From Stegostoma tigrinum (Eukaryota), in NCBI RefSeq assembly GCF_030684315.1, contig NC_081372.1:1367920-1431919 (forward strand): 64,000 bases of DNA. The letters are read 5' to 3'. Below the pieces are notes generated by a model, which did not search any database, had not been told where the DNA came from, and saw only the letters and a list, made by a program, of their open reading frames with translations. The translations under genes were made by a program, and so were the position numbers. This document shows, in pieces, positions 3,443 through 58,660 of this stretch; within the stretch, counting starts at the first letter, position 1; every line of letters begins with the position of its first letter.

Positions 3443-3672
3443 ATAACAAATTGTGGAGCTGGATGAACACAGCAGGCCAAGCAGCATCTCAGGAGCACAA
3501 AAGCTGACGTTTCAGGCCTAGACCCTTCATCAGAGAGGCCCATCTCTCTGATGAAGGGTCTAGGCCCGAAACGTCAGCTTTTGTGCTCCTGAGATGCTGC
3601 TTGGCTTGCTGTGTTCATCCAGCTCCACACTTTGTTATCTTGGATTCTCCAGCATCTGCAGTTCCCATTATC
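3443..3672. mobile_element. Palindromic Penelope-like pseudo-LTR-derived element with hammerhead motif
   Basis: Inverted arms centred near 3538, matching the terminus of the GIY-YIG element at 35454-36643; CTGATGA...GAAACGTC at 3548-3575. Confidence 0.85.
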
Positions 3673-4669
3673 ACCAATAAAACATTACTTGCTTTTGTTT
3701 AAGACTGACTGTCACACAACAGTATTTCAAATTAATTTCCCTTTCATTTACCTGATTTTTAGCTGCTACCTGATCTGCTATCAATGGTACAGACTCAATA
3801 TGTTAGCTTGCGCTCTTACACTCCATAATGTACCCCATCACTGAGTATTCTCACCAAGTACCAATGCTTTTGCTGAAAAATATTTTAATATCAATTTGAC
3901 AAAGCTGAAACCAGCTTAGAACAGCTTAGTGCTCATACGTTGTCGCTGCACTCCATGCAAAACCCTGGCCCTGTCTCCAGGTGAAACACAAAAAACAGCA
4001 GGAGACCATTCTGCCCATCAAACCTGTGCCACCATTCAATGTGATCACAGCTGTTCCTCAATCTCAGCAGCATGCTCCTGCTGCGTCCCCTGACCTGCCT
4101 TTCACAGTGTTCTGTGGTTCCACACATTCATCACCTTCCCAGTGGAGGTATCTCTCCTCATCTCCGCTCAAAATGGTCAACCCCATATCCTGAGATTCAT
4201 GACCCCTGCTTCTCGACTCTCCAACCAGGGGAAACATCTTCCCTGGGGCAAATCCGTCTGGGCCTGTTAGAGTTTTATATGTTTTAATTAAATCCTCTCT
4301 TATTCTTCTAAACTCAGCGAATATAGGCCAAGTTGACCCAATCTCTTCTCATCGCTTAGTGCTACCAACCCAGGAGTCAGTTTGCCCAGTTTGTCTCTCA
4401 ATGGCAAATGTATTGTTTCTGTGGTGAAGAGGCTAAAGTTGCACAACACCCAGGGGTGGTCTCGCCAGGGCCCGCTGTAACTTTAATAAGAGTTATTTGT
4501 TTCTCAAGATCTTTTGAATGAAGTGAACAGACTATTTAGCTTCCAACTGCGTGTAACAGTTGCCTGTTTGCTTCCAGTGACAGGTGTACAAGGAGAGCCA
4601 GGTCGCTTCGGGCACTGACCTTTCCCAATCATCACTTCACCAACACTCCGCCATTCTCTATCTCCCTCA

Positions 4670-4681
4670 CGCACACACACA

Positions 4682-4726
<45 letters not shown>

Positions 4727-6373
4727 ACACTTACTCACACACACACTTACTCACACACACAGTTACTCACACACTCACACAAACAGTCACACACACTCAC
4801 TCATACACTTACTCACTAACACACTTATTCACATTCTCACANNNNNNNNNNNNNNNNNNNNNNNNNNNNNNNNNNNNNNNNNNNNNNNNNNNNNNNNNNN
4901 NNNNNNNNNNNNNNNNNNNNNNNNNNNNNNNNNNNNNNNNNNNNNNNNNNNNNNNNNNNNNNNNNNNNNNNNNNNNNNNNNNNNNNNNNNNNNNNNNNNN
5001 NNNNNNNNNNNNNNNNNNNNNNNNNNNNNNNNNNNNNNNNNNNNNNNNNNNNNNNNNNNNNNNNNNNNNNNNNNNNNNNNNNNNNNNNNNNNNNNNNNNN
5101 NNNNNNNNNNNNNNNNNNNNNNNNNNNNNNNNNNNNNNNNNNNNNNNNNNNNNNNNNNNNNNNNNNNNNNNNNNNNNNNNNNNNNNNNNNNNNNNNNNNN
5201 NNNNNNNNNNNNNNNNNNNNNNNNNNNNNNNNNNNNNNNNNNNNNNNNNNNNNNNNNNNNNNNNNNNNNNNNNNNNNNNNNNNNNNNNNNNNNNNNNNNN
5301 NNNNNNNNNNNNNNNNACTTACTCACTCACACACACACACTCACTCACACTCACATTCACACACACACACTTAATCACTTACACTCACACACTCACATTC
5401 ACACACACACACACACACACTCACTCACTCACACACTTACTCACACTCACACACACTTACTCACACACANNNNNNNNNNNNNNNNNNNNNNNNNNNNNNN
5501 NNNNNNNNNNNNNNNNNNNNNNNNNNNNNNNNNNNNNNNNNNNNNNNNNNNNNNNNNNNNNNNNNNNNNNNNNNNNNNNNNNNNNNNNNNNNNNNNNNNN
5601 NNNNNNNNNNNNNNNNNNNNNNNNNNNNNNNNNNNNNNNNNNACACACACACTTACTCTCACATATGCACACACACACACACTTACTCACACACACATAC
5701 ACACACTCACTCACACACACTAACACACACTCACACACACACTCACACTTACTCACTCACACACTTACTCACTCACACACTCACATTCACACACACACAC
5801 TTAATCACTTACACTCACACACTCACATTCACACACACACACTTACACACACATTCACACACACTCACACACACACAATCACTCACACACACATAGGCNN
5901 NNNNNNNNNNNNNNNNNNNNNNNNNNNNNNNNNNNNNNNNNNNNNNNNNNNNNNNNNNNNNNNNNNNNNNNNNNNNNNNNNNNNNNNNNNNNNNNNNNNN
6001 NNNNNNNNNNNNNNNNNNNNNNNNNNNNNNNNNNNNNNNNNNNNNNNNNNNNNNNCACACACACACACTAACACACTCACTCACACACACTCACACATAC
6101 TTAAACACTCACACACACTCACTCACACTCACACACTTACTCACACACACACTCACACACACACTTACACACACTCACATTCACACACACACACACTCAC
6201 TTACACACACACATACTCACTCACACTCACATACACACTTACTCACACACTCACATTCACACACACACACACTCACTTACACACACACATACTCACACAC
6301 TCACACACACACATACTCACTCACACTCACACACACACTTACTCACTCACACACTCACATTCACACACACACT
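4670..6373. repeat. Degenerate (CA)n / CACT-rich microsatellite interrupted by N runs
   Basis: Directly visible low-complexity CA/CT tract with N stretches. Confidence 0.95.
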
Positions 6374-9790: not shown

Positions 9791-10184
9791 ATTGAAGTCA
9801 TCCATAATTATTGCTCAATTCTTTTTATATGTTCCTATTATTTGTTGATATATTGCCTTTCCCACAGAGTGGTTACTGTTTGAGGACCTGTACACTACTC
9901 CTACCAATGTCTTCTCTGGTGTCAAACCCACACTCAGGTACATCATGTTCCCCCTCCAATAGCTTATCCTTTCACTGCCCCTGTCAATCATATTCTCATC
10001 AATTCAACATCTCTCAGGATCACACTGCCTGGGTCAGTCAGGCCAATTGGTGAGCTTCATGATGGAGTGAGACCATCTCTGCTGACAATGGAAGGTTTTG
10101 TATGATTCCCACTTTCTCTGCAGCACATTCTTCATTTCTGCTCTGTGGAGATGAGAGGAACAGCAGGTGAAATCAATATTCCAT

Positions 10185-10406
10185 GAGATAATGGGAACTG
10201 CAGATGCTGGAGATTCCAAGATGATAAAATGTGAGGCTGGATGAACACAGCAGGCCAAGCAGCATCTCAGGAGCACAAAAGCTGACGTTTCGGGCCTAGA
10301 CCCTTCATCAGAGAGCTCTGATGAAGGGTCTAGGCCCGAAACGTCAGCTTTTGTGCTCCTGAGATGCTGCTTGGCCTGCTGTGTTCATCCAGCCTCACAT
10401 TTTATC
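10185..10406. mobile_element. Palindromic Penelope-derived element with 15-bp TSD and hammerhead motif
   Basis: Near-perfect inverted arms centred near 10315; ATCAATATTCCATGA at 10172-10186 and 10407-10421. Confidence 0.9.
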
Positions 10407-12648
10407 ATCAATATTCCATGATATGGTTTTGCTCTTCCTTTGAAGAGTGCCATTCTCAAATAGGGGAATAATTTCTGATACATTAGATAAGGGAAGTACA
10501 CACTGAGTCACTATGGTTCAGATCTGAACACTATTAAAAAGGCTGAAACTGGGTCTGAGGAAGGGTCATCAAACCTGAAACATTAACTCAGATTTCCCTT
10601 CACAGATGTTGCCAGATCTGCTGAGGTTTTCCAGCAATTTCTGTGTTAGTTTCTGATTTACAGCACCCGCAGTTCTTTCAGTTTTTATTTACTATTGAAG
10701 GGCTGATGTTTGGTTAGGTGTTTTACTGAGTTTCTAAATTGTGAGCAGGAACTGGGAGAAGAATTCTGCAGCAAGATTTGAGATAAACATATTTTACAAA
10801 AATACTGCTCCGGGAGAATTTAATCATATATTTCATATATTGGACAGGGAGGATGCTAATGGAAAACAGGCAATGAAATTTGAAAAGCATGTCTGGAGTC
10901 CTTCCTTAAGGTGGAGAGGCTGGCAGTGCAGAGAAGAGGGTTAATCTGCCTGTTAAAAGTGTATCATTTCTTCCAAAGAGCAATCCAGATAAAGCCACTC
11001 TCCCCCTACCCCCATATTTTCCTAATAACCTTGCAGTTTCTATATTTCCCTCTGTGTGTCCAACACCCTTATGGTTCCAAACCATAATGCAGCGCGAATG
11101 TTAGACCGCGCATTGTGGGATTATCCTTTGACATATTTGTCCTCTGGTCTCAGGATCTTCAGGTACAAAGACCTTATTTGAGGTCAGCAGGAGATGTTCT
11201 TTCAGACAAGATCCTTTGGCTTTCTGCACCTAGACCTCATTTACTTGCTGACCCACCATATCCCTTTACTTAACAAAATGTCATCAACCTCAGGCAGGTG
11301 GGTGATACAGCACCATGGTAACACTGGCATATTTCCACCATCAGGATCACCAACCCCTGACTCACCAATAGGGCACAGGGAGGGCCCTTCCCATCCAGGT
11401 CCCAGGTGAAGCCAGCATTTAATACTCAGCCTACGGGAGGTAGGGCAGGGCAGTGTGTATTGTGGATGGGTTCAGCAGCTTGGACCAAGGTTGGGGTCGG
11501 GGAAGGGCTGGGGGTGACGGATTGCTGGTCAGTGAAAGGTTAAGAGGGGGGGAATGTGTGTTCTCCCCAGGACAACCTCCAACACCCCTGGGTACATTGG
11601 AGAGCCTCACACCCAAGCGTTTGTAACCTGCACCCACCCGGCCCACACCCCTCTATACCTGACACTTCCCCCATCCCTACAAAGTCCATCCTTGCCCCCA
11701 CCCCCACCCTTACACCTCCAGCAAAGTCCTGATTTGGGTAGAGTCTGTGGTTCAGCCACCCCAAGGCCTGCAATACCGGCAGTGGCCACTGATCCTGGGG
11801 TGCTGCTGAGCAGTGACCTCCAATTGGTCAGCAGCTCTACGAGGCGGGGCTCCCTCTTGGAGACAGGTGGAAGCCCCACCTCTTCCATCACCTTAACCAT
11901 TCTGTAAACAGGAGATGACTAACAGGTCCAGGCAGCGGGCTATGGGCGGGATGGAGGGGGAGGTCATTCCTGCCGACTGCCTGTCCACCTTCCACATTAT
12001 GTCCAGGTGTCATTAGAAATGAAGCATGAGTGTCCATCAATGCTCTCAATGCTTTAGAGAGGGGTCTGTAGGGGTTACAGTGCCTTGTCTCCCCCTCCAC
12101 CTCCATTCTGATTTAGCCCCTCCCCATCTCCCTGTCCCCTCCCTCACAGTCAATTGTTCGCATTGCTCCTGTCGGGCTTTGCACGTAAACTATTCAAACG
12201 GAAAAACCAGGTGATTTACTGGTGGTACTCAATGGATGGAAAACAAATCACAGTGACTTGCAGATAGAAACAAATAAATGTTCAGTTGTGTATAAGAGCG
12301 CATCTGGACCTAAAGTGGAGGTGAGCTACTCCCTGAAGCCACACTAGGGAGCAGGGAGACCATCTTCAGCATAACCTCTTTTACCATCAAAACTTCAGGA
12401 AACAAAACTTTAGTTTGTGTAAATTTTCCTCAGAGCTTACCTCTTGGAGTCCAGGTGTCACTCTGGCACGTCAGCTTCCGGCACTCCCTCCAAGGTCACT
12501 ATCTCAGTCCTAAGGCACACTCTCAGAAGGGCTCACAATATCTCCAGTTGTTGTCTAATCTGGGCTTTGTCCTGGTGAAGGAGACATTCTCCAGGAGGCA
12601 GCTGGTCACCATTATCCAGCTGCAGAACAGTGCGGAATGTCTCTATTT

Positions 12649-12747
12649 AAGGTAACACAGTGTAGAGCTGGATGAACACAGCAGGCCAAGCATCATCTTA
12701 GGAGCACAAAAGCTGACGTTTCGGATCTAGACCCTTCATCAGAAAAG
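12649..12747 (-). mobile_element. Solo Penelope pseudo-LTR fragment with 12-bp TSD
   Basis: Same arm sequence as the palindromic copies; ATGTCTCTATTT at 12637-12648 and 12748-12759. Confidence 0.8.
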
Positions 12748-14811: not shown

Positions 14812-15030
14812 ATCAGAGATAATGGGAACTGCAGATGCTGGAGAATCTGAGATAACAAAGTGTGGAGCTGGATGAACACAGCAGGCCAAGCAGCATCTCA
14901 GGAGCACAAAAGCTAACGTTTCGGGCCTAGACCCTTCATCAGAGAAGGGTCTAGGCCCGAAACGTCAGCTTTTGTGCTCCTGAGATGCTGCTTGGCCTGC
15001 TGTGTTCATCCAGCTTCACACTTTGTTATC
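14812..15030. mobile_element. Palindromic Penelope-derived element with 10-bp TSD
   Basis: Inverted arms centred near 14942; CTAATAAATT at 14799-14808 and 15030-15039. Confidence 0.85.
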
Positions 15031-15044
15031 TAATAAATTTTAAA

Positions 15045-15715: not shown

Positions 15716-16077
15716 GGACATGGGCAATTGTTGAAGTTTGAATTGAGTAAAAATCCAGAATTTAAAGCTAGATTAATGAGGATTACATTACTTTTGTCAA
15801 TTATCAAGAAAAAACGCCTTCGGATTCACTCTTGTTTACTTAGGAATGCTGTTACATAGCACCTGGCACATCCTGAGAAGCCCTAAAGACCAAAGAGTTC
15901 TTCTGAAGGTAAATGGTCCCTCACTCGGTGTTATTCAGGTTATTCAGGCTATTCCGGGTCACAGCTGCGGCACTCACTGGGCCCAATGGTCACCCCCGAC
16001 CCACTTGGGCTGACTGACCGACAGCATCAGCTCAAATACCGGGCACCAGCAACCTCGACCACTCACAGCACGCGGCT

Positions 16078-16475
16078 CCTCCCAGCCAGCAGGGGCCGCT
16101 ATGGTGAGTCCTCCCAGCCAGCAGGGGCCGCCATGGTGAGTCCTCCCAGCCAGCAGGGGCCGCCATGGTGAGTCCTCCCAGCCAGCAGGGCCCGCTACGG
16201 TGAGTCCTCCCAGCCAGCAGGGCCCGCTACGGTGAGTCCTCCCAGCCAGCAGGGCCCGCTACGGTGAGTCCTCCCAATCAGCAGGGCCCGCTACGGTGAC
16301 TCCTCCCAGCCAGCAGGGCCCGCTACGGTGAGTCCTCCCAGTCAGCAGGGACCGCTACGGTGAGTCCTCCCAGCCAGCAGGGCCCGCTATGGTGAGTCCT
16401 CCCAGCCAGCAGGGGCGGTGCAGTGAATCCTCCCAGTCAAGGGGAGGCGGAACGATGAGACCTCCCAGCCAGTAA
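16078..16475 (+). repeat. 32-bp GC-rich minisatellite, ~12 copies (CCTCCCAGCCAGCAGGGCCCGCTACGGTGAGT)
   Basis: Period measured directly (TGAGTC at 16201 and 16233); the array decays towards ~16570. Confidence 0.95.
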
Positions 16476-16699
16476 GTGGCGATACTGATTCCACCAAGCC
16501 AACAGCGCCCGGTACAGGGACGCTGCCCGGCACACAGGGGGCGGTACCGCGAGTCTTCCCAGCCCACGGGGGCGGTACAGTGAGTTCACCTCCCGAATAA
16601 TCGTGAAACGGGGATTAAATCTGTCTAAAATGATAAACAATTGAATGATATGTGAAAATTGCCGATTTCACGCCGTTTAATTGCTTGTTGGAACAGAGT

Positions 16700-17340: not shown

Positions 17341-20300
17341 CCCATCCCCCCCCCATCCCCCGGGCTTCTTTGTAAAGTAGATTGGGGTGAGTGTTCGACC
17401 CCTGAAACCTCCTGCTTTTCATCGTCATCCCGGTTGGCCCGTGGTTTTTAATTGTACTTTTCAAACATCCTGGCTCCCACCTGCCCCAATCCTGCTGCAG
17501 TTACTTCTGACTCTGTCCTGGGTTACACCTGAACTCAGCCTGATGTACGTCCCCTCCTTTCTGAGAAGCACAGAACTAATGACTCTCTGGGAGAGGGGAT
17601 TGCTGGTAATCTCTGTTTCAAGCAGAGGACCCCTTTATTGTCAAACTTGCCGCTTTGTTCTACACAAGCAGCAGCAGTTTCGCTCCATCTACCTGGTGCA
17701 GACCCCACAGTGCTGTCCTTCAGTAAAGTCACTTTTTGTTCTTCCAACTGCTGAGAGTTCAGGCTCCCCCGATCTACCTTTCCTCAACTGCTTCAGCGTA
17801 GGAATGGACCTTCCTGGAAATGCCTCCAGTGCAACCTTCCTTAAACAAGGAGAGTGAAACAACACACAGCTCCACTGTACGGTGGACCTGACCTTTTATA
17901 TTTTATCCCTTGAAATGAAGGCCAATGTTTCATTTACTTTCCTAATTACCTGCTGTCTCTTAGTGCTAAATGTGTGTCTCATGCACAAAGGCACCTAGGT
18001 CTCCCTCTGCCACAGCAACTCAAATAGAGTACACTGCCCAGTTCCCATTTAATCCAGGAACAAAAACAGAAGCTGCTGGAAAAACTCAGCAGGTTTGGCA
18101 GCATCTGTGAAGAAAAGAAAAAAGTCAGAGTTAATGTTTCAGGTCCAGTGACCCTTCCTCAGAACAGTTCTGAAACATTAACTCAGATCTTTTTGTCACT
18201 GCTGCCAGACCTGCTGAGCTTTCCCAGCAGCTTCTGTTTTTGTTCCTGGTTTACAGCATCCACAGTTTTTTTCGTTTTTATTTCCCATTTTATACGACCT
18301 GTTTAATTATATCTTATAAATTTGACAGAAATGGTTTCCCTTTCTCAGAATCATGGTGAGTCTGCCTTGTCATATAGTGGCTTTCTAGAATTTCTGCCAC
18401 AGCCTCCTTAAAACTGAATTTAACTGCCTTCCCAATGACAGGCATTAGGCTAACTGGCCTAAGGTTTCCTGCTTTCTGTGTCTCTATTTGAGAGTGGAGA
18501 TGTTGAACTTTTTTTGAGAGTGGAGAATGTGAGAGATTCCCTAGTTTTGGAAAGGTCTTTGGGAAGATTACAACCAATGTGTCTATTGTCTATTATCTCT
18601 GTAGCTACTTCCTTTTAATGCTGTAGGAAGGAGGCCATCAGGCCTGGGGGCTCTTATCAGATTTTAGTTTTCCCAGCAGCCGCCTTTTGGTTTTGAATAT
18701 TTTTAATTCCTCTCTTCTTTCTCCCCACTTGTGCCACAATTTTCTATTGCTATTGATGCTTTTTGTATTTTCTGCTTATTCAAAGACTCTCTTCTGATGC
18801 CTTGTTTCTATTATTATTAGTTCTGTAAACTTCTCTTCTCTTTTTAATGGATCAACACAAGAATCAGGAGCAGATGTAAATATTTGGCCAGTCAAGCCTG
18901 CTCCACCTTTCAATACGATCATGTCTGATCTGGGGTTTCAGCTCCACTTTCCTGCCTTCTCCCCATCTTCCTCATGTTCCTGAGAGATATCCTAGTGCTA
19001 GACGTAGACAATAATAGAACATCCTCTTGGACAATCCTAAAGATTCACAACTTTCTGAGTCTTAAACGGTTGGCCCCTTGTCCTGATACAGTAACTCCAT
19101 CATTTACCAGAGCAACTCTACCTCCTAGTATATTGTAGAAGCTCTTACCATCTGTGTTTATATTTTTTTGCTAGTTTACACTCATTCTAATTTCTCCATT
19201 CTTCTAATCATCCCTGCTGATTCCCACACTTGCCCCACCTTCTGGCCTGATAATTGTTGTGGCATTTTCCTTCAGTCTGTCTAAGTAAAAGGTCAGTCTG
19301 GGTATTCCAACCTCTAACAAGAGTTACTGGCCTCTGAGGGGGTGGAGAACAGATTATTCACCAGAATAATACTGAGGGGCTGGATTTCTGTGCTTAAAAT
19401 CTAAACTTTGGGAAGGTCTTGGAGCACAAGTGCCTGATTCACCATGATGGGAAAGGCTGTGAATATTGAGTGAAAACCTTTGAAGGAATTTTTCTGTACA
19501 TTCCCTTTAATGTTTATCACAGATTTTTTAAAAGTGGAAAAACGTCTGTCTACTCTGTGGTGTGATTTTTCAGTTGGATTCTGATCAGCATCTCCAGTTT
19601 CAACGTCTGACCTCTTGTGTCTTGTAGGCAAAGATGTCCTTTGCTAACCTGTCCCGTGGGAAGAAGGTAGCTTTATCAACGTTAGGTGTTCTTGCTGCCG
19701 GGGGCAGTGCACTTGCCTTGACGCTGCACCATTCGGTGTATGCAGAGCTGGAACTCCATGCTCCCAGTTACCCCTGGAATCACAGCGGATTCTTGTCTGC
19801 CCTTGATCATGCCAGGTGAGAGAATTACAATCTCTGGGCTGTTTATTTGGGTAAGACTTGATTTTGGTGTTGGATACTAAAATGGCCCTCAGCCACTCGC
19901 TTGGTTTAGACAGTTGGTCAGTGTGAAATTGAACAGTACAAGTTAGGGTTTGGAAAAATACTGTTCAGGTCTTTACAGGGAAAAGACAGGAGGATGGCAG
20001 GAGACAAACTGTTTGCTCAGAGAGCTGGTGCAGACACAGTGGGCCGAATGGCTACTTTCTGCATTGCAACAATTCAGTGGTTCTGTTCCATTGCTGGTCT
20101 GTGCTGTTAATGTATCCAAGTTACTGATGATGCCAGTATCAGGCTGGAAAGTAAGCTGCTAGAATGTGAAGAAGCTGCATAAGAATTCTAACAAATTAAA
20201 TAAATGGGTGAGAACACAGGAAATGGAATAAAATGTAAACATTGTTAAGATTTTTAAGTGAACAGAGTGGATTTTTTCATAGGATCTGAGTACATCTGGC

Positions 20301-23300: not shown

Positions 23301-26300
23301 GTCTGTGCAGCCTGCCACAGTATGGAATACGTGGCCTTTCGGAACCTCATTGGAGCGACACATACCGAGGAAGAGGCCAAGGCTCTAGCCGAGGAGGTGA
23401 GTGTCACAGAGTCATTCTTTACTTCTCTTGTTGAGCTGAGCGATGTGTGCCTGGGTGTTACTCTGATAATACCATCCAGTATTTTAAGCCTCGGGCTGCC
23501 CAGTTGGTGGACAGTGAGAGTTGAATGCAGTGTGAAGATCCTCTGCTTTGCCGCTTAACAGACTGACATTTCCATTTCCTACCACGGCATCTGATTTGTG
23601 ACCCCTGGCCTCGTTAAAGTGAATTAATGTTTGTCTACAATCGTGTCGCTCTCGGGCTTTGTGTCCAGTGGAGTACCATCCCATCAGTCTCAGCTGGATG
23701 AAAAAAACAATCTCCGACCTCTCAGAATCAGAGAGATATTATAGAAAGTTGCCTTTCAACTATTGTGCTAACACTAGCTCTTCAAATGAGCATCATTACC
23801 TTGTACCAATCTCTCCTCATATCCTTGCACGCTACTTTTCTGAAAATAATTAACCAATCCCCTCAAATGCTCCAACTTACAGGCAGTGCAATCCATACCC
23901 TAACAACTCGCTGATAGGAGAAAACCTTTTTTCAATCACCTTTTGCTTTTACAAATCAGTATAAAGCTGTGCTCTCTTGCTCCTTTAACAAGCAGGAATT
24001 GTTTTTCCTTATTTATTCTACGCAGCCTGTTCATATCAAATCTCCTCATAGCCTTTTTCTGTCCAACGAGAACAATTCAAACTTTTTCAATCCATCTTCA
24101 ACTGAATATTCTCACCCTGGAACAGTTCTTGGAAATCACTTCTGCACTCCAGTGTATTCTCACATTTTCCTATAATATGGCACCCACCCTACACCATACT
24201 CCAGCTTGGGTCTAGCAAGTGTCCTATTCAAATGCACCGTCACCTCCTTAACTCCGTATTCTGTCAAAGAGACCAGATTTATTACAGCGTTTTTTTTCAT
24301 TGAAACACCACCTTGTGAAGTAGTTGCTAATGCTGTAACGAACAGGCATAGGCCATTCAGCCCCTGTAGCCTGCTCTGCCATGACTTTCTGATGTCCACT
24401 TTCCTGCCCTTTCCCCATAACTCTTAATTCTCCCAACAATCAAGATTTTTATCTCAGCCTTAAGTATACGTAGGACTCTGCCCCCACAGCTCTCTGGTAA
24501 AGAGTTCTAAAGATTTGCAACCCTCTGAGAGAAGTTCCTTCTTATCTTGGTCTTATATTGGCACCCATTTACTCTGAGACTGTGCTCTCTGGTCCTGATT
24601 CTTTAGGAACATATAACATCAATTGTTCTGAAACAGGAATCATAACATGATACAGCACAGGAAATGACCATTGGACTCATTATACTTTTATATTCCATTT
24701 TCCAACCATATTTTTTTCTTCAAAGTATTTATCCCTTTCCGTTTTGAATATAGTTAGTGAAATTGTTTCCGCTGTCCCTTAAGGCTTTTTTCCCCATTTC
24801 ATTCACGGGATGAGGGTGACCAATTCATTGCCCATCCCTAATTGCCCAGAGGGTAGTTAAGAGCCAACCACGTTGCTGTGGTTCTGGAGTCACATGTAGG
24901 TCAGACCAGGTAAAGATAACAGTTTCCTTCCCTAAAGGACATTAGTGAACCAGATGGGTTTTTCCAACAATGGATTCACAGTCATCATTAGATACTTAAT
25001 ACCAGATATTTTATTGAATTCAAATTCCACCATCTGCCGTGGTTGGATTCAAACCTGGGTCTGCAGAACATTATCTGGGTCTCTGGATCAACAATCCAGC
25101 GATAATATCACTAGATCATTGCCTCCCCTGGACTGTACATTTCCAGGTCGCAACTTGCTAAAATATTAAGTCTGTCCTCTGCCCTCTTTGCCACCTAACT
25201 GTGTTCGATTTGCATTCTGTTCAATCTACTTTATAAAGAAAATTTTAAAGTTTTATGAACATTTAACCACCCACCTCCCGCCTCAAAAAACCACCTTTGC
25301 TCTAAGGAGAACAATCCCAGCTTCTCCACGTCACTGAAGTCCCTCATCCTGATCCCATTCTTGTGAATCACCTCAACTCGAAGACCTTAATATCCTTCCT
25401 CAGAAAAAACCAGTGAACCCAGCACCAACCTCTGGGAATAGCACTGTATATTTCCCTGCAGTGTAGAAACATGGTTGATTCTCAACTACTGTGAAATGGC
25501 CTAACAAGCAACTTAGTTCAAAGGAAATTAAGAATGGGCAACAAGTGCTGGCCATGCCACGATGCCTACATCATTTTTAAAAAAAAATCACAACTGTTCA
25601 ACAACCTTGCTTTCTAGTTTTTATCCCTCAGTGGCTCCTGTATCCAAGCTCCTGTTGCCTGTCACTTTAATGCACCACCCTGTTCCCTGGTTGAAGTCTC
25701 TGTCCCAGGCTTGCTGCAGTGTTCCTGCAAAGTTCAGCACAAGCTGGAAGAACAGCACCTCATTTTCTCTTTAGGGACCCTGCAGCCCTCCAGGACTCAA
25801 TAGTGAGTTCAATGATTTTTGAGCCTGAACTCTTCCCATATCCTAGTTCCCTGTCCCAGACACCAGGCCTTGTTATCTCTCAGCCTGCTATTACACAGAT
25901 AGCCAGATGGTTATCAACTCCTTTGTCTGTCCAGCTGTTTTGTCTCTTTGGGCTCTATCCCCACCAATGGTTTACTCCTTAACCCCATCCTAAGTTCTGC
26001 ATATAAATTGTCATTTTCCAAGCTACCGTCAGTTTTGAGGGAGGGTCACTGGACCTGAAATGTTAACTCTGATTTTTCTTCACAGATGCCTCCAGACCTG
26101 TTGAGCTTTTCCAGCAACTTCTGTTTTTGTTCAAGAAGCCATTGTTGATTGTCAGGGGTAAAAAAGTCCATGTGGTTCACTAGTTCTCCCCTAAAAGACA
26201 TTAGTGTCTTTACCTGGTCTGGCATACATAAGGCAGCAGATCCACAGAAATATGGTTGAGTCTTAACTGCCCCCTGGACAATAAATGGTGCCTAGCCAGT

Positions 26301-29300: not shown

Positions 29301-32300
29301 GCCAGATACAGCAGCTTCCAAATACACAACCAATTTCTTCTAGAAAATCAAGGGTAGCAGATCCATGGAAATACTGCCACCTCCACGTTCCACCACCAAA
29401 CCACTCACCATGCTTGGGAATATATCACTGCTCCTTCAGCGTTGCTTGATCAAAATCCTGGAATTCCCACCCTAAGGTCAACTCACAGCTCATGGACTGC
29501 AGCGGTTCAAGAACGCAACTCACCACCACCTTCTCAAGGGACAACTAGGGGTGGGAAATAAATGCTGGGCCAGCCAGCGACACCCATGTCCCACAAGTGA
29601 ATAGTAGAATCAGTTGTGGGATTTTGTAGAAAATTCTTATTGAAATTTTAAAGCCTTGAACTTGCTTGTGAGACAGAGACACTGATTTTCTTCTTTGGTT
29701 ATGTAGGCACGGTGGTGAGGATTACATCTTCACCCTTCTGACTGGTTACTGTGACCCTCCTGCTGGCATCAGTCTTCGAGAAGGTCTGTACTACAACCCC
29801 TACTTCCCTGGTCAGGCTATTGGAATGGCTCCTCCAATCTATGATGAAGCCGTTGAGTATGAGGATGGTAGGACTTGATTTGTATACCTTGAATTTGTAT
29901 TGACTCTCACTGGGCTATCCTAGTCCCACGTTATGACTTTGCTTTCCCTCTAGTGCTTTATTTGGTCATTTGGTGCAATCAAAGTGCTGGTTAACCTAAA
30001 GCTGGAGTCAAATGTATCATTGTGGGCACTGCACCTTAGAAAATAAAGCCTTGGAAAGAATGCAGCACACATTTACCAGTCTGTTACCTCGACCCAAGAA
30101 AAGGTTATGAGAGATTGCACAAACGCTACTGGTATTTAATGAAATATTGAAATTTGAGCTGATTTTGATTGAGGTTTTTAGGATTTTGAAAGTAATTGAT
30201 AGGTAACGAGAGACTGTTTGCTGTTAGGAGCCCAGGACACAGGAAATAAAAGCTCGCTCTGTTCAGTGTGGAAATTAGGATATAGATGAGCCATGATCTG
30301 AATGGTAGAACAGACTCAAAGGGCAGAATGGCCTCCCTCTGATCCTTTTAAAGGTTTGAGAAAGTCCATTAACCAGAGCAGGCAGGCTCCCTGCTGGTTC
30401 AAACGTTGATTGCACTGTTCAGTTTAGAACTGAGCTGATCCCTGGTATATACTAGGTCCTGCAGTAGTTAGGAACAGGATGAGGCCATTCAGCTCCTCAA
30501 GTCTGTTCTATCATTCATTGAAATCATGGTTGATCTGTGGTGTAACTCCATAGATCTGCCTTTGGCCCACATCCCTTAATACCTTTGTTTACCAAAAATG
30601 TATCTGTCTTAGATTTAAGCTCGACAACTGATCCAGCATCCACTGCAGTTGGTGGAAGAGCATTCCAAACCTCTACCACCCTTTGTGTGTAGAAGTGCTT
30701 CCTAACATCGCTCCTGAACTGTCTGCCCTAATTCTCAAACTATGCCCCTGGTTCTGGAGTCTCTAACTAGTGAAGACAGTTTATCTACCCTGTATTCTCC
30801 TGTTAGTATCTTGAAGACATTGATCCCATCATCCCTTCTACATTTGAGGAAAAAATACAGCCTAATCCGTGTAGTCTTTCCTTGTTACTTTAATGCCTGA
30901 AATACAGGTCGTGTTCTTGTAAAGCTATGCTTTACTCCCTCTAAGGCCAATATATTTTTCCTAAGATGTGGTGCCCAGATCTGCTCACAGTGCTCCAAGC
31001 ATGGTCTAACCAAGGTTTTGGTTGACTGCAGCATGACTTCTGCTTCCTTGTACTCTTCCTTTTATATTCAAAGGCCAGCATTTCATTAACTACTTGATTA
31101 TTTTCTGCACTTTTGCATGACACTTTTAAAGTCTGTGCACCTGAATCCTGCTCCCTGCCCAAGTCTCTTTGACATCCACTATATTTAACCCAGTGCTATC
31201 TAGAAAGTACCTTGATCTATCCTTTTCTGTCCAAAGTGGATCTTAGTGCAGTTGAAGGATACAAATGACTAACATTACTGAGATATCTACTGGGAACAGG
31301 ACAATGAGGCAGGAAGATGTCTGTGAATTCAATCCAAGTCTGAGATGAAATAATCATTTTGGTATATTCCAGCTCCACATTTTCCCCTCATCTGTCATAG
31401 GCCTGGGGCTTTGAGAAGCATCTATGGATGGATGTGATGGTGATAACTTGCATTGCTATGTGACTGGCTGCCTATGAAACTGAGTCTGGACATTGCAACT
31501 TCTGTGTTATGAGACTGAGATACCTGGAGCCTGCTGATTTTAGTGTTGAACTCTCCTCATTCACAGGTACTCCAGCCTCGATGAGTCAGATTGCTAAGGA
31601 CGTCTGCACATTCCTGCGCTGGACTGCTGAACCAGAACACGACCAGCGCAAACGCATGGGCCTGAAGGTCAGCTCTGTAACCTAACTTTGTTACAATAAC
31701 AATGTCTGCCTTTACACCCATTCCTGTTGAGATAACTGAGCAATTGTCTGGGCCATTAATGAGGCCACTTGGAAATTAAATATTAGTGTAGGACTAAAAT
31801 CTCACAGGTCCAGTATGGGTAAACACAACATTAATGAACATCAAAGCAAAGCAAAATAACTTAATGCTGGAACTTCTGAAGAGCAGTCACATTTGGCTCA
31901 ACATTAACTCTGTTTCTTTCTTCACAGATGATGCCAGACCCACTGAGTTTCTCCAGCATTCTATGTTTCCATTACAGTAATGAATATAGAATTGATGTTG
32001 GACTAGACTAGCTGATGGAAAGGGCTATAGTGAGTTTTGAGAAGATTTGTAGCTCAGGTTGAGGTTCTGGGTGTGAGTTTGCTCGCTGAGCTGGAAGGTT
32101 AGTTTTCAGATGTTTCGTCACCATTCTAGGTAACATCATCAGTGAGCCTCCGACGAAGCGCTAGTGTTATGTTCCACTTTCTGTTTATCTGGTTAGGTTT
32201 CCTTGGGTTGGTGATGTCATTTCCTGATGTCATTTCCTTTGATGACATCACCAACCCAAGGAAACCCAAACAGATAAACAGAAAGCGGGACATAACACCA

Positions 32301-33605
32301 GCACTTTGTCGGAGGCTCACTGATGATGTTACCTAGAATGGTGACGAAACATCTGAAAACTAACCTTCCAGCTCAGCGAGCAAACTCACACCCGGAAAGG
32401 GCTATGTTTGAATACCTGGGAATGGGGAGGATGTTATTCTGTGCCCTAATGTAATCTCTTTGAGTCAGGGAGCAGCATTACTAGTAAACGTCTTTACAGG
32501 CTGCACTGTCGAAGCCTTTTTTTTTCACAAGAATTCAAAGCAGGAATATTGGTAAAATCAGGAACAAAAACAGAACTTGCTGGAAAAGATCAGCAGGTCT
32601 GGTAGGATCTGTGAAGAAAAATCAGAATTAACGTTTTGAGTCTGGTCACCCTTCCTCGGAACTGTTCTGAGGAAAGGTCACTGGACCCTAAATGTTAACT
32701 CTGATTTCTCTTCACAGATCCTCCCAGACCTGCAGAGCTTTTCCAGCAAGTTCTGTTTTTGTTCCTGATTTACAGCATCTGCAGTTCTTTTAGTTTTTAG
32801 TATTGATAAAGTGATTGGAGCAGGAATTCCACATTCCTGAAGGAACAGAATGTGTGCTCATGTACATCATACAGTGAGAAATGTTACTTCACAACTTTGA
32901 CTGGAGAAAATGGCCACTGTGCTTCCCTGTGGCTCAAAGGGGAAAATACTCATTGTTGCTGATTCTGATAGTATATTGAATATTCTGGTCTCTGCTTAGT
33001 TTGCTGCCTTTTCCTGGAGTGACAGTAAAAAGGATGAAAATAGTGGGCCTATATTTCTCCTCATTGCTTTCTGTGGCCTGGAACTTGCCTGATTCGATGC
33101 TGACTGAGCAGTATTGAACTCAGTCTTACTGTCATCTGTCTACGGGAGGAACAAGAGTCCCTTGGCTACAGGACCAGCCCCAATGTCAGTAACAATGGTA
33201 ACATAGCACAGATTCCTCCCTCTGGGGAGTACTGAGTAACGGGGAGGAGTGGCAGTAGTGACACTTACAATTTGTGTCCCACAGTTTTGCATGACTGAGA
33301 TTTTTATGGTGCCTTTTGCAGTCTCAGTAATCCCAAAATGCTTCACAGTCAATCTAGTGTTTTTGAAATGTTGTCACATGTATTACAGTAGAAGTGGACT
33401 AATTCGGTAGCTCTTTCAAAGAACCACCACAGGAATAATGGGTTGAATGGTTTTGTTCTTTGCGGTAAGGTGCTACAGTTGAGCTTCTTCTCTTTTACAG
33501 ATGCTGATGTTCTCAGCTGTGTTTTGGCCACTGCTTTACTACTTGAAGAGGCACCGATGGTCTGTTTTAAAGAGTAGGAAGATTGCCTACAAACCTCCAA
33601 AATAA
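17001..33605 (+). CDS. CYC1: Cytochrome c1, heme protein, mitochondrial (complex III); 7 coding exons, 918 nt, 305 aa
   Basis: Exons 17001-17078, 19628-19815, 23270-23396, 26949-27106, 29707-29867, 31567-31667 and 33501-33605 join through GT-AG introns with consistent phases; CAACH heme motif, PPDLSYI, GMAPP axial Met, C-terminal TM followed by [12 protein letters not shown]. Confidence 0.98.
19628..19815 (+). CDS. CYC1: CYC1 exon 2
   Basis: TAG acceptor; [16 protein letters not shown]...[21 protein letters not shown]; donor AG|GTGAG. Confidence 0.97.
20670..21635 (+). mobile_element. Decayed CR1 LINE in CYC1 intron 2
   Basis: ORF 20842..21174 ends in [16 protein letters not shown], a CR1 RT C-terminal motif. 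Confidence 0.8.
21750..22870 (-). mobile_element. CR1 LINE with a + strand CR1 fragment nested at ~22330-22717
   Basis: ORF 22060..22323 ([12 protein letters not shown]); an opposite-orientation CR1 3' end interrupts it. Confidence 0.75.
23270..23396 (+). CDS. CYC1: CYC1 exon 3 (CXXCH heme attachment)
   Basis: [18 protein letters not shown]...AKALAEE; TTTCCAG acceptor and GTGAGT donor. Confidence 0.98.
24795..25130 (-). mobile_element. tRNA-derived SINE (second SINE family; a similar copy lies at ~45980-46338)
   Basis: Two closely similar dispersed copies; the minus strand starts GGGGAGGC with a B-box-like GGTTTGAATCC and ends in a LINE-like GAATGAA tail. Confidence 0.7.
26949..27106 (+). 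CDS. CYC1: CYC1 exon 4
   Basis: [25 protein letters not shown]...[10 protein letters not shown]. Confidence 0.98.
27240..28420 (-). mobile_element. Decayed CR1/L2-group LINE
   Basis: ORF 27527..27745 (MEYSLLVW...[10 protein letters not shown]) is an RT C-terminal remnant; related copies lie at ~53440-54180 and ~62350-63330. Confidence 0.7.
29707..29867 (+). CDS. CYC1: CYC1 exon 5
   Basis: [53 protein letters not shown], translated by hand; not in the ORF track. Confidence 0.98.
30470..31240 (-). mobile_element. Decayed CR1 LINE in CYC1 intron 5
   Basis: The reverse strand carries CR1 3' UTR and RT remnants (CTTCTACACACAAAGGGTGGTAGAGGTTTGGAA). Confidence 0.7.
31567..31667 (+). CDS. CYC1: CYC1 exon 6
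   Basis: [33 protein letters not shown]; CAG acceptor and GTCAG donor. Confidence 0.98.
32029..32393. mobile_element. Long palindromic Penelope-type element of a second family, with 12-bp TSD
   Basis: ~160-bp inverted arms (mirror ORFs 32126..32320 and 32142..32336); GGAAAGGGCTAT at 32017-32028 and 32394-32405; hammerhead-like core at 32320-32353. Confidence 0.8.
32555..32800. mobile_element. Older palindromic Penelope-derived element, third family (related copies at ~10550-10690, ~18050-18280, ~26030-26130, ~54260-54390)
   Basis: Inverted arms; CTGAGGAAAGGTCACTGGACCCTAAATGTTAACT core; CAGCATCTGCAGTT terminus shared with the younger family. Confidence 0.75.
33501..33605 (+). CDS. CYC1: CYC1 exon 7, coding part
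   Basis: [34 protein letters not shown], with TAA at 33603-33605. Confidence 0.97.
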
Positions 33606-35453: not shown

Positions 35454-36643
35454 AGAGATAATGGGAACTGCAGATGCTGGAGATTCCAAGATAATAAAAT
35501 GTGAGGCTGGATGAACACAGCAGGCCAAGCAGCATTTGACACATCCCTCACACCCCGCCCCCGCCACAACCGCCCCAAGAGGATCCCCCTCGTTCTCACA
35601 CACCACCCTACCAACCTCCGGATACAACGCATTATCCTCCGACACTTCCGCCATTTACAATCCGACCCCACCACCCAAGACATTTTTCCATCCCCACCCC
35701 TGTCTGCTTTCCGGAGAGACCACTCTCTCCGTGACTCCCTTGTTCGCTCCACACTGCCCTCCTACCCCACCACACCCGGCACCTTCCCCTGCAACCGCAG
35801 GAAATGCTACACTTGTCCCCACACCTCCTCCCTCACCCCCATCCCAGGCCCCAAGATGACATTCCACATTAAGCAGAGGTTCACCTGCACATCTGCCAAT
35901 GTGGTATACTGCATCCACTGTACCCGGTGCAGCTTTCTCTACATTGGGGAAACCAAGCGGAGGCTTGGGGACCGCTTTGCAGAACACCTCCGCTCAGTTC
36001 GCAACAAACAACTGCACCTCCCAGTCGCAAACCATTTCCACTCCCCCTCCCATTCTCTTGATGACATGTCCATCATGGGCCTCCTGCACTGCCACAATGA
36101 TGCCACCCGAAGGTTGCAGGAACAGCAACTCATATTCCGCCTGGGAACCCTGCAGCCATATGGTATCAATGTGGACTTCACCAGTTTCAAAATCTCCCCT
36201 TCCCCCACTGCATCCCTAAACCAGCCCAGTTCATCCCCTCCCCCCACTGCACCACACAACCAGCCCAGCTCTTCCCCCCCCACCCACTGCATCCCAAAAC
36301 CAGTCCAACCTGTCTCTGCCTCCCTAACCGGTTCTTCCTCTCACCCATCCCTTCCTCCCACCCCAAGCCGCACCCCCAGCTACCTACTAACCTCATCCCA
36401 CCTCCTTGACCTGTCCGTCTTCCCTGGACTGACCTATCCCCTCCCTACCTCCCCACCCACACCTTCTCCACCTATCTTCTTTACTCTCCATCTTCGGTCC
36501 GCCTCCCCCTCTCTCCCTATTTATTCCAGTTCCCTCCCCCCATCCCCCTCTCTGATGAAGGGTCTAGGCCCGAAACGTCAGCTTTTGTGCTCCTGAGATG
36601 TTGCTTGGCCTGCTGTGTTCATCCAGCCTCACATTTTATTATT
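35454..36643 (+). mobile_element. Penelope-like retroelement, 5'-truncated, with GIY-YIG endonuclease C-terminus, inverted partial pseudo-LTR and 16-bp TSD
   Basis: ORF 35511..36596 contains CNRRKCYTC and VVYCIHC...LYIGETKRRLGDRFAEH (GIY-YIG); ATGGTGGGCGGAAGGG at 35423-35438 and 36644-36659. Confidence 0.93.
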
Positions 36644-36849
36644 ATGGTGGGCGGAAGGGCCTGTTCCTGTGCTGTATTATGCTGCGTTCTAACAGCAGTC
36701 AGTCAGGTTACGGGAATTGCCCTGACTCAGGCACTGTGCGGAAGATACGCTGTTTCTGAAACCCAGAGCTCCACCTGCATCCACTGTGTTCCTGTAAATA
36801 ACCCCCCTCGGTGCACCTCAGCACAGACGCCCATCCCTGATCCCACACT

Positions 36850-38467
36850 GTTACTGCAAATGCCCCCCTCAGCACAGATACCCCCACCCTGTTACTGTAA
36901 ATGCCCCCCTCAGCACAGATACCCCCACCCTGTTACTGTAAATACCCCTCAGCACAGATACCCCCCACCCTGTTACTGTAAATACCTCTCAGCACAGATA
37001 CCCCCCACCCTGTTACTGTAAATACCCCTCAGCAGATACCCCCCACCCTGTTACTGTAAATACCCCTCAGCACAGATACCCCCACCCTGTTACTGTAAAT
37101 ACCCCTCAGCACAGATACCCCCACCCTGTTACTGTAAATACCCCTCGGCACAGATACCCCCACCCTGTTACTGTAAATACCCCTCGGCACAGATACCCCC
37201 ACCCTGTTACTGTAAATACCCCTCAGCACAGATACCCCCCACCCTGTTACTGTAAATACCCCCACTCTGTTACTGTAAATACCCCCACCCTGTTACTGTA
37301 AATACCCCTCAGCACAGATACCCCCCACCCTGTTACTGTAAATACCCCTCAGCACAGATACCCCCCACCCTGTTACTGTAAATACCCCTCAGCACAGATA
37401 CCCCCACACCCTGTTACTGTAAATACCCCCTCAGCACAGATACCCCCCACCCTGTTACTGTAAATACCCCTCAGCACAGATACCCCCACACCCTGTTACT
37501 GTAAATACCCCTCAGCACAGATACCCCCCACCCTGTTACTGTAAATACCCCTCAGCACAGATACCCCCACACCCTGTTACTGTAAATACCCCCTCAGCAC
37601 AGATACCCCCCACCCTGTTACTGTAAATACCCCTCAGCACAGATACCCCCACACCCTGTTACTGTAAATACCCCCTCAGCACAGATACCCCCCACCCTGT
37701 TACTGTAAATACCCCTCAGCACAGATACCCCCACACCCTGTTACTGTAAATACCCCCTCAGCACAGATACCCCCCACCCTGTTACTGTAAATACCCCCTC
37801 AGCACAGATACCCCCCACCCTGTTACTGTAAATACCCCTCAGCACAGATACCCCCACACCCTGTTACTGTAAATACCCCCTCAGCACAGATACCCCCCAC
37901 CCTGTTACTGTAAATACCCCCTCAGCACAGATACCCCCCACCCTGTTACTGTAAATACCCCTCAGCACAGATACCCCCCACCCTGTTACTGTAAATACCC
38001 CTCAGCACAGATACCCCCACACCCTGTTACTGTAAATACCCCCTCAGCACAGATACCCCCCACCCTGTTACTGTAAATACCCCTCAGCACAGATACCCCC
38101 CACCCTGTTACTGTAAATACCCCTCAGCACAGATACCCCCCACCCTGTTACTGTAAATACCCCCTCAGCACAGATACCCCCCACCCTGTTACTGTAAATA
38201 CCCCTCAGCACAGATACCCCCCACCCTGTTACTGTAAATACCCCTCAGCACAGATACCCCCACACCCTGTTACTGTAAATACCCCCTCAGCACAGATACC
38301 CCCCACCCTGTTACTGTAAATACCCCTCAGCACAGATACCCCCCACCCTGTTACTGTAAATACCCCTCAGCACAGATACCCCCCACCCTGTTACTGTAAA
38401 TACCCCTCAGCACAGATACCCCCACACCCTGTTACTGTAAATACCCCCTCAGCACAGATACCCCCAT
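36850..38467 (+). repeat. ~39-41-bp minisatellite, ~40 copies (CAGCACAGATACCCCCCACCCTGTTACTGTAAATACCCCT)
   Basis: Directly visible and highly homogeneous; units vary mainly in C-run length. Confidence 0.97.
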
Positions 38468-38469
38468 CT

Positions 38470-38613
38470 CCACGGGGCAATGGTGACCCCTGACCCTGCC
38501 GACCAGTCCGCTCCAGCCCCTCCTCCCTTCCCGGGGATCCCTTCGTAGTGTCACAGCCAATAGGAGCCGGGCCGGTTTCGCCGGAAGTGCAAGGTTGTCT
38601 TTCCGGGGTCGGG
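38470..38613 (+). promoter_or_regulatory. ERGIC3 core promoter / 5' UTR
   Basis: CpG-rich; CCAAT at 38557-38561; ETS/GABP CCGGAAGT at 38581-38588; TTCCGG at 38601. Confidence 0.7.
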
Positions 38614-38701
38614 ATGGAGGCGCTGCGGAGGTTGCGACGGTTCGATGCTTATCCCAAAACCCTGGAGGATTTCCGAGTGAAAACCTGTGGAGGGGCCCTG
38701 G
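38614..38701 (+). CDS. ERGIC3: ERGIC3 exon 1
   Basis: [29 protein letters not shown]; donor G|GTGAG. Confidence 0.96.
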
Positions 38702-57544: not shown

Positions 57545-58660
57545 GAAGTCACATGGAGTCCAGGGTGTGCTAGCTAGATGGATAAAAAAACTGGCTGGGC
57601 AACAGGAGACAGAGGGTAGTAATGGAAGGGGGTTTCTCAAATTGGAGACCCGTGACCAGTGGTGTTCCACAGGGATCTGTGCTGGGACCACTGTTGTTTG
57701 TTGATAGACGTCATGATTTGGAGGAAGGTACAGACGGTCTGATTAGCAAGTTTGCAGATGACATGAAGATTGGTGCTGTAGCAGATAGTGAAGGGGACTA
57801 TCAGATTACAGCAGAATATAGATAGATTGGAGAGTTGGGCAGATAAATGGCAGATGGAGTTCAATACGGGCAAATGTGAGGTGATGCATTTAGGAAGATC
57901 TAATTCAAGACCGAACTATACGGTAAATGGAAAAGTCCTGGGGAAAATTGATGAACAGAGAGATCTGTGTGTTCAGGTCCATTGTTCCCTGAAGGTGGCA
58001 ACGCAAGTCGATAGAGTGGTCAAGAAGGCATATGGCATGCTTTCCTTCATCGGACAGGGTGTTGAGTACAAGAGTTGGCAGGTCATATTACAGTTGTATA
58101 GGACTTTGGTTTGGCCACATTTAGAGTACTGTGTACAGTTCTGGTCGCCACATTACCAAAAGGATGTGGATGCTTTGGACAGGGTGCAGAGGTGGTTCAC
58201 CAGGATGTTGCCTGGTATGGAGGGTGCTAGCTATGAAGAAAGGTTGAGTAGATTAGGATTATTTTCATTAGAAAGATGGAGATTGAGGGGGGGACCTGAT
58301 TGAGATCTACAAAACCATGAGGGGTATAGACAGGGTGGATAGCAAAAAGCTTTTTCCCAGATTGGGGGACTCAATTACTTGGGGTCATGAGTTCAAAGTG
58401 AGAGGAGGAAAGTTTAAAGGAGCTATGCGTGGTAAGTTCTTTTCGCAGAGAGTGGTGGGTGCCTGGAATGCGTTACTGGCGGAGGTGGTAGACGCAGACA
58501 CGGTAGTGTCTTTTAAGATGTATCTGGACAGGTACATGGATGGACAGGGATACAGACCCTTAGAAAATAGATTTAAAGGTTTAGAAAGAGGATCTCAATT
58601 GGCACAGGCTTGGAGGGCTGAAGGGCCTGTTCCTGTGCTGTAATTTTCTTTGTTCTTTGA
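57545..58660 (+). mobile_element. Young CR1 LINE 3' fragment, same subfamily as 80-935
   Basis: ORFs 57622, 57788 and 58317 (SGVPQGSVLGP, KFADD, WQMEFN); translation nearly identical to the minus-strand copy at the window start. Confidence 0.92.

Follow-up and report, generated by a model that had tools for sequence, protein, structure and literature searches.

The focal element lies at positions 10185-10409 of the window, by which we mean the whole 64,000-nucleotide stretch of Stegostoma tigrinum DNA that was analysed. It is one head-to-head insertion flanked by a 15-nt target duplication, and its arms (10220-10313 and 10316-10409) form a 94-nt, 100% complementary inverted repeat around a 2-nt centre. 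Positions within the element are given with a plus or minus sign, zero being C3, the first C of CUGAUGA, and the predicted scissile bond lying between +27 and +28. The features of the locus are:

10172-10186, no strand: target-site duplication, left copy, 15 nt, overlapping the element end by 2 nt
10185-10315, minus strand: long arm, the pLTR end over −4 to +126 relative to C3, including a ~35-nt tail (10185-10219)
10284-10311, minus strand: hammerhead core with the parental 2-bp helix I, predicted to be masked by the arm duplex
10314-10315, no strand: head-to-head junction, where the arms start at −4 and −2; likely RNA 5′ end
10311-10352, plus strand: hammerhead with a junction-made 7-bp helix I (10311-10317 with 10346-10352) and core at 10318-10345, predicted to be masked
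10316-10409, plus strand: short arm, the pLTR end over −2 to +91
10407-10421, no strand: target-site duplication, right copy, overlapping the element end

The tail belongs to the long arm only and is missing from the short arm; the cut predicted for the plus-strand hammerhead follows 10345. Further copies of this family (family A), and a pair from a second family that served as a control (family B), were found elsewhere in the window:

3443-3672, no strand: second family A head-to-head pair with the core on both strands, one short and one long arm
12653-12743, minus strand: solo short arm of family A, ending just upstream of the core
14816-15031, no strand: family A head-to-head pair whose plus arm begins at +5, within the core
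32065-32397, no strand: family B head-to-head pair with its own minimal hammerhead
35455-36642, plus strand: 5′-truncated parent copy comprising the GIY-YIG portion of the ORF, the pLTR and a hammerhead at 36552-36579
53787-53932, no strand: family A head-to-head pair from +37, hammerhead-free

An inverted long-tail stub (35455-35535) adjoins the truncated parent copy, which over 35538-36642 is 99% identical to another copy, L008. The family B pair has 156-nt arms that read through beyond the −16 boundary described below, and CATC replaces CGTC in both of its cores. An older, third Penelope-like element (PLE) family is represented at 10548-10687, 18055-18280, 26030-26167 and 32555-32771, one of these relics lying 140 nt from the focal element; it has a CUGAGGA core, a GUU triplet and a (G)TT/AA(C) helix I, and its palindromes, too, have their centres slightly upstream of the core, by a few bases. 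The window contains, in addition, tandem arrays at 4603-5976 (partly N-masked), 16013-16492, 36839-38524 and 38640-39900, with periods of about 8-10, 32, 40-41 and 8/9/14 nt, and a dispersed inverted repeat (203-936 and 57817-58550; 734 nt, 91%) that is probably a LINE piece. A Pfam search of 17 ORFs from the window returned one reverse transcriptase (RT) fragment (42256-42726; RVT_1, E=1.9e-5), probably also a LINE piece, and nothing else, in a search that short exons would escape.

The hammerhead motif and its parent, a Penelope-like element

The core, CTGATGA-A-GGGTC-TA-GGCCC-GAAA-C-GTC, is present on both strands of the focal palindrome, which bears out an earlier note that had placed a minimal type I hammerhead on both strands at 10313-10350. 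Seven matches to the core were found in the window by sequence pattern search, against 0.17 expected, and none of 100 shuffles attained seven. The matches are:

3506-3533, minus strand
3548-3575, plus strand
10284-10311, minus strand
10318-10345, plus strand
12715-12742, minus strand
14915-14942, minus strand, with a GUU triplet
36552-36579, plus strand

All of the further copies that the note had named (at 3548, 12715, 14915 and 36552) are thereby recovered. Its statement that mirrored cores occur on opposite arms holds for two of the four family A head-to-head pairs in the window; in the other two, the plus arm at 14944 begins inside the core, and the 53787-53932 pair is coreless. Across the 3.2 Gb genome, a 31-nt core sequence has 89,060 exact copies. 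The hammerhead search that had been suggested as a check gave a divided answer: no Rfam hammerhead covariance model matched in cmscan at E≤1, and a descriptor search found 100 hammerhead motifs in 1.464 Mb of genome, with 0, 0 and 0 in the Markov controls.

The motif is real and belongs to a known kind, the minimal type I hammerhead of PLEs. It has the CUGANGA, GAAA and UH core elements of that kind in order, a helix II with the G10.1-C11.1 pair and one unpaired base following the core, and it sits in a PLE pLTR. In the isolated RNA, helix II has 4 bp capped by a CUAG loop, the fifth pair having a probability of 0.0, and among the descriptor matches its stems differ in sequence and are paired in each of three families. 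The loopless, palindromic helix III is ACGU, and CGTC is found in 67 of the 100 motifs, the remainder being mostly CpG-decay forms. The first pair of helix I is T-A in 91 of the 100 motifs and A-T in six, and helix I as a whole is CT/AG, TCA/TGA or (G)TT/AA(C) depending on the family. The native helix I of family A is only 2 bp (65 of 71 motifs). For the focal copy the earlier reading of 5 bp has to be replaced: up to 7 bp, two of them G-U, are available on the plus strand. The proposed lengthening of helix I by the palindrome centre, relative to the parent, is correct for the plus strand; the minus strand keeps the parental 2 bp.

Minimal type I hammerheads of metazoan PLEs were described by Cervera and De la Pena 2014 (PMC4209133). 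As presented in that main text, they share with ours the CUGANGA core, the one unpaired base before helix II, the G10.1-C11.1 pair, a palindromic 15.2-16.2 with no loop 3, the pLTR location and tens of thousands of dispersed copies. Native helix I, at 2 bp, is as short here as in D. virilis and differs from the 4-5 bp of schistosomes (PMC4209133), and the focal hammerhead differs from those described there in being masked inside a head-to-head pair. The comparison literature also included the accessible text of PMC2377424 and PMC5753468.

An ORF that carries RT motifs, a CX4CxxC linker and GIY-YIG lies upstream in the longer copies. These parent copies, together with the descriptor search, support the earlier attribution of the hammerhead to the pLTR of a young PLE. 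There is a single ORF, with RT and C-terminal GIY-YIG, seen as open frames carrying DKG, YIDD and YIGET motifs; on partial ORFs, Pfam gave E=0.0011 for GIY-YIG and E=0.0093 for RVT_1, both below the cut-off. Copies L165, L166 and L174 have the order pLTR, hammerhead, tail and ORF, with the ATG about 167 nt downstream of C3, whereas in Poseidon_Ac of Anolis the main text has the hammerhead overlapping the ORF start (Frangieh et al. 2024, PMC11167929). The linker between RT and endonuclease, CNRRKCYTC, fits the Neptune-clade CX2-5CxxC pattern, which is given as common to Neptune and Nematis (main text of PMC8557442) and sets the ORF apart from that of Poseidon_Ac; judged from the linker, the element would be of Neptune type. 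The N-terminal part of the ORF (L022:3645-4100, and L174) contains a tandem, ADGTPPT-like peptide repeat of varying copy number. Three family A palindromes (L002, L020 and L006) are much longer, at 588-1,453 nt, and perfect to near-perfect, with arms up to 99.7% identical.

The element also has the hallmarks of EN+ PLEs, namely partial tandem or inverted pLTRs, a one-sided tail and a target duplication. EN+ insertions are characterised by an inverted, 5′-truncated pLTR and a one-sided 30-40-nt tail (main texts of PMC3846280 and PMC8557442), and the inverted layout, the tail at one end, the target duplication and the partial-tandem parent found here all resemble them. Self-priming or endonuclease resolution is proposed for the layout in those texts; our data go beyond them in the fixed 5′ boundaries, a rule by which long arms pair with short ones, and a class of insertions beginning at the scissile bond.

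Predicted folding of the palindrome

The earlier note held that any transcript crossing the palindrome gains a cleavage site. Folding with ViennaRNA contradicts this, the arm duplex out-competing the ribozyme fold in silico at all lengths folded. The arm hairpin has a predicted energy of −209 kcal/mol, helices I and II have a probability of 0.000 on both strands in the palindrome context, and the arm duplex has a probability of 1.0 at every one of 11 nascent transcript lengths. On the plus strand, helices I and II can be imposed at a cost of 59.1 kcal/mol. Whichever strand is read, the antisense complement is transcribed first and the sense ribozyme follows in the downstream arm, so that the ribozyme fold is predicted to be inaccessible. 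The focal hammerhead is thus likely to be inert, and not to cut transcripts across it.

We give almost no credence to the opposite proposal, that the palindrome is an active double-stranded hammerhead cassette which cuts host transcripts, aided by its longer helix I. The core is indeed intact on both strands, both helix II and the 7-bp helix I form in an isolated 47-mer, and the hammerhead of the family appears to cut some parental RNAs, as discussed below. These points are set against the folding probabilities and the energy penalty just given, and helix III would still require a second, unmasked copy (the ACGU duplex by itself contributes −1.7 kcal/mol; dimer cleavage of minimal hammerheads is credited to Lunse et al. 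in the main text of PMC6765202). Nor are junctions that make a long helix I enriched. Of 6,931 palindromes whose centres fall in the 24 nt upstream of the core, 364 have the focal junction, and in a hand count of 50 palindromes, among the matches listed, four junctions made a long helix I and four destroyed helix I. Hand counts, here and below, were made by eye from the rows listed, which are the first places in the genome and not a random sample. Selection for a long helix I was accordingly rejected; it is a junction accident with no sign of selection. For the host, thousands of perfect hairpins of ~95 bp would more likely be dsRNA substrates than cleavage sites.

Formation of the palindromes and the likely RNA start

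Head-to-head pairs follow a simple rule. Among 90 pairs (from a sample and from collected loci), 81 join a long arm to a short one, five are short with short and four long with long. The arm 3′ ends cluster at +89 to +93 and +125 to +133. This matches Poseidon_Ac, in which the tail has an internal RT start site on each side, and for which the main text also describes cutting and extension of both target strands, a predicted dimer and a template of mostly uncleaved RNA (PMC11167929). We consider it probable, with some confidence, that the focal locus is a single short PLE insertion, twin-primed head to head, whose hammerhead is locked in the 94-bp arm duplex. The two nicked target strands would each prime reverse transcription, at the two internal start sites of the element; the two cDNAs, one from each end of the tail, would run off the RNA 5′ end, and their ends would be joined head to head, bluntly or by 1-4 nt of microhomology. 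In L1 twin priming the second target strand primes a second cDNA, and in retroviral strong-stop DNA a cDNA begun near the RNA 5′ end runs off. The two L1 cDNAs are made from different stretches of the RNA, whereas here a shared stretch of ~95 nt would be copied twice, so that the palindrome is perfect.

The two arms would share their origin, either a single RNA or a single source locus. The arms share 206 variants, compared with 74 ± 9 (maximum 99) in 300 shuffles, and later arm-to-arm conversion could also be a source of such sharing. Twin priming accounts less well for the nine of 90 pairs that are not long with short, and for one locus (L024, G000:C1:5796261-5799292) whose two arms carry different subfamily haplotypes, which suggests two RNA templates or later recombination.

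The 5′ ends of the arms were profiled in 169 young arms of 269, older subfamilies being left out. Of these, 57 read through, five end at −60 to −10, 44 at −9 to 0, 40 at +1 to +14, two at +15 to +27 and 21 at +28 to +49. Genome-wide, against the 6,931 palindromes centred up to 24 nt upstream of the core, only 29 are centred upstream of the TATA-like box in a gap of equal width. In family A this box, TATTTAT, starts at −34, 30 nt above a boundary at −4. In family B an ATAAA(T)A motif starts at −46, so that, if the boundary is an RNA start, it should lie at −16 in that family. There are 290 family B palindromes in this region, with both arms at −16/−17 in about 42 of 50 listed, and six near −4. 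Both boundaries start on a C within a pyrimidine run. As the boundary moves from −4 to −16 with the TATA-like box, it is tied to the promoter-like motif and not to the ribozyme. The pile-up of 5′ ends 30 nt below the box in two families thus likely marks the RNA start, which would put the transcription start of family A at −4. A spacing of 30 nt from a TATA box is not general for such elements, however, as the D. virilis Penelope is described, in the text available, as having an internal promoter without TATA.

G precedes the −4 start 5,035 times, against 2,408 for A and T, about twice A and T together, which hints at a cap-templated G. About seven of 30 inspected G-preceded −4 starts were solo copies in a hand count; in solo copies the G usually lies within the target duplication, as annealing of a cap-templated C to the target would predict.

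The shared arm variants would also be explained by fold-back self-priming of one strand, as Arkhipova et al. 2013 proposed for such junctions in the text available, with −4 as an RT stop at the ribozyme edge instead of an RNA start. We regard this as improbable. The shift of the family B boundary follows the TATA-like box, centres of 0-2 nt leave no loop, and among 31 copies with the focal junction, the −4 arm carries the long tail in 20 and the −2 arm in nine (hand count). It is more improbable still, to the point of being hardly tenable, that the palindrome descends from a single master copy and propagates itself as a non-autonomous element of MITE-like or retrozyme-like kind. The 364 copies with an identical junction would fit such an origin, but they span several parental subfamilies and have the long tail on either side, junctions as a whole vary widely, and the copies are not arrayed in tandem in the retrozyme manner. 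A single master palindrome was rejected on these grounds. Non-LTR retrozymes are defined, in the part of bioRxiv 10.64898/2026.07.22.740005 consulted, by tandem direct repeats with a hammerhead in each; this classification was also rejected, the focal unit being a dispersed inverted pair.

A second class of insertions at the scissile bond

Under twin priming from an RNA start, the focal copy falls in the −4/−2 class, and its template would have been an uncleaved RNA. A second pile-up of 5′ ends lies further downstream. Counting copies in which all three preceding bases are non-parental, family A has 259 ends at +20 and 161 at +24 (both somewhat undercounted, as these patterns include a CpG), 167 at +26, 3,095 at +28, the scissile bond, 481 at +30 and 1,411 at +35. 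The profile is a step plus a spike, and is partly shaped by microhomology. Among 100 listed ends at +35, about 30 follow CAG, forming a small CAGG/CCTG hairpin. Bond-starting arms are a few percent of family A (3,095 against 89,060 cores), a share in line with the mostly uncleaved template described in the main text of PMC11167929.

Family A alone is confounded, because the AGCT that follows the bond is self-complementary. Among 100 listed +28 ends of family A, about 63 belong to the AGCT self-annealing type, and of the 1,477 palindromes centred at about +15 to +32 genome-wide, 50 were listed, with 28 centred on AGCT (+28 to +31), seven on GGCC and two on ACGT (+23 to +26). Microhomology at AGCT, acting in joining or in later deletion, could produce the pile-up, as could an RT stall at the 3′ foot of a hairpin; the parental fold does have a hairpin with its foot at +29, and ends are still frequent at +35. 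We judge these explanations unlikely, though less so than the alternatives weighed above. ACGT, an equal 4-nt palindrome only 5 nt off, was used twice where AGCT was used 28 times, and non-AAA ends at +28, about 37% of the 3,095, still exceed the 161-259 found upstream. In family B the bond is followed by TGAA, which is not self-complementary, and the hairpin foot is missing; blunt or near-blunt joins of both arms nonetheless occur at the bond, and ends do not accumulate at the foot of helix I. Family B ends at −2, 0 and +6 from the bond number 12, 37 and 14. By hand count, 11 of 23 family B palindromes have two arms that end at the bond (four blunt, seven with small insertions), and two of the 23 are ACGT-centred. 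A hand count over a wider span, which favours short arms so that the figures are not population shares, covered 44 insertions: 19 were exactly at the bond (about five of which could start 1 nt downstream) and five more within 1 nt, nine stopped further downstream and 11 passed it. Twenty loci chosen among those listed proved to be separate insertions from several subfamilies, long with short in 19, and most had a target duplication.

A second insertion class thus starts at the scissile bond, as it would if some templates were cleaved beforehand: a minority of template RNAs may already have been cut by the hammerhead, as an ACGU dimer or with the help of the element's protein. That the pile-up reflects cleavage has, in our estimate, a somewhat better than even chance, and the bond-starting insertions are likely fossil evidence of hammerhead cleavage in vivo. 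Several points weigh against cleavage. The family B numbers are small and partly hand-counted, the count at +35 is high, the native family A helix I is just 2 bp with the lowest-energy fold of the parental RNA mispairing the core, and Frangieh et al. report, in their main text, no RNA-seq reads ending at the cleavage site of Poseidon_Ac (PMC11167929), where a few percent of arms begin at the bond here. Taking both pile-ups together, the balance tips modestly towards reading the insertions as a fossil map of RNA 5′ ends, mostly a capped, TATA-positioned start and, in a few percent, the scissile bond; this would imply germ-line cleavage with a helix I of 2-3 bp, retrotransposition of the cleaved RNA, and a head-to-head layout produced by one complex that begins reverse transcription at both ends of the tail, on the two target strands.

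The role of PLE hammerheads is described as unclear, and their cleavage in vivo as not shown, in the main texts of PMC4209133, PMC8557442 and PMC11167929; the end map bears directly on the question left by the first of these, which presents no evidence of cleavage in vivo. In the titles and abstract openings of the openly accessible literature, no description of insertions beginning at the hammerhead bond, or of run-off at an RNA start, was found; the genomic ends in supplementary Fig. S2 of Frangieh et al., and the supplement of Cervera and De la Pena, may bear on how new this is.

The ribozyme itself is of a known kind and is predicted to be inert at this locus, and the interest lies in the end map obtained as a by-product. 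If the cleavage reading is true, thousands of bond-starting insertions in two families would be evidence for cleavage by PLE hammerheads in vivo, and such maps could be read from any assembly rich in young PLEs. The pairing of long with short arms, together with a boundary linked to the TATA-like box, offers a concrete and testable origin for the inverted pLTR and the tail. The end map thus renders both the in vivo cleavage of PLE hammerheads and the origin of the inverted pLTR directly testable.
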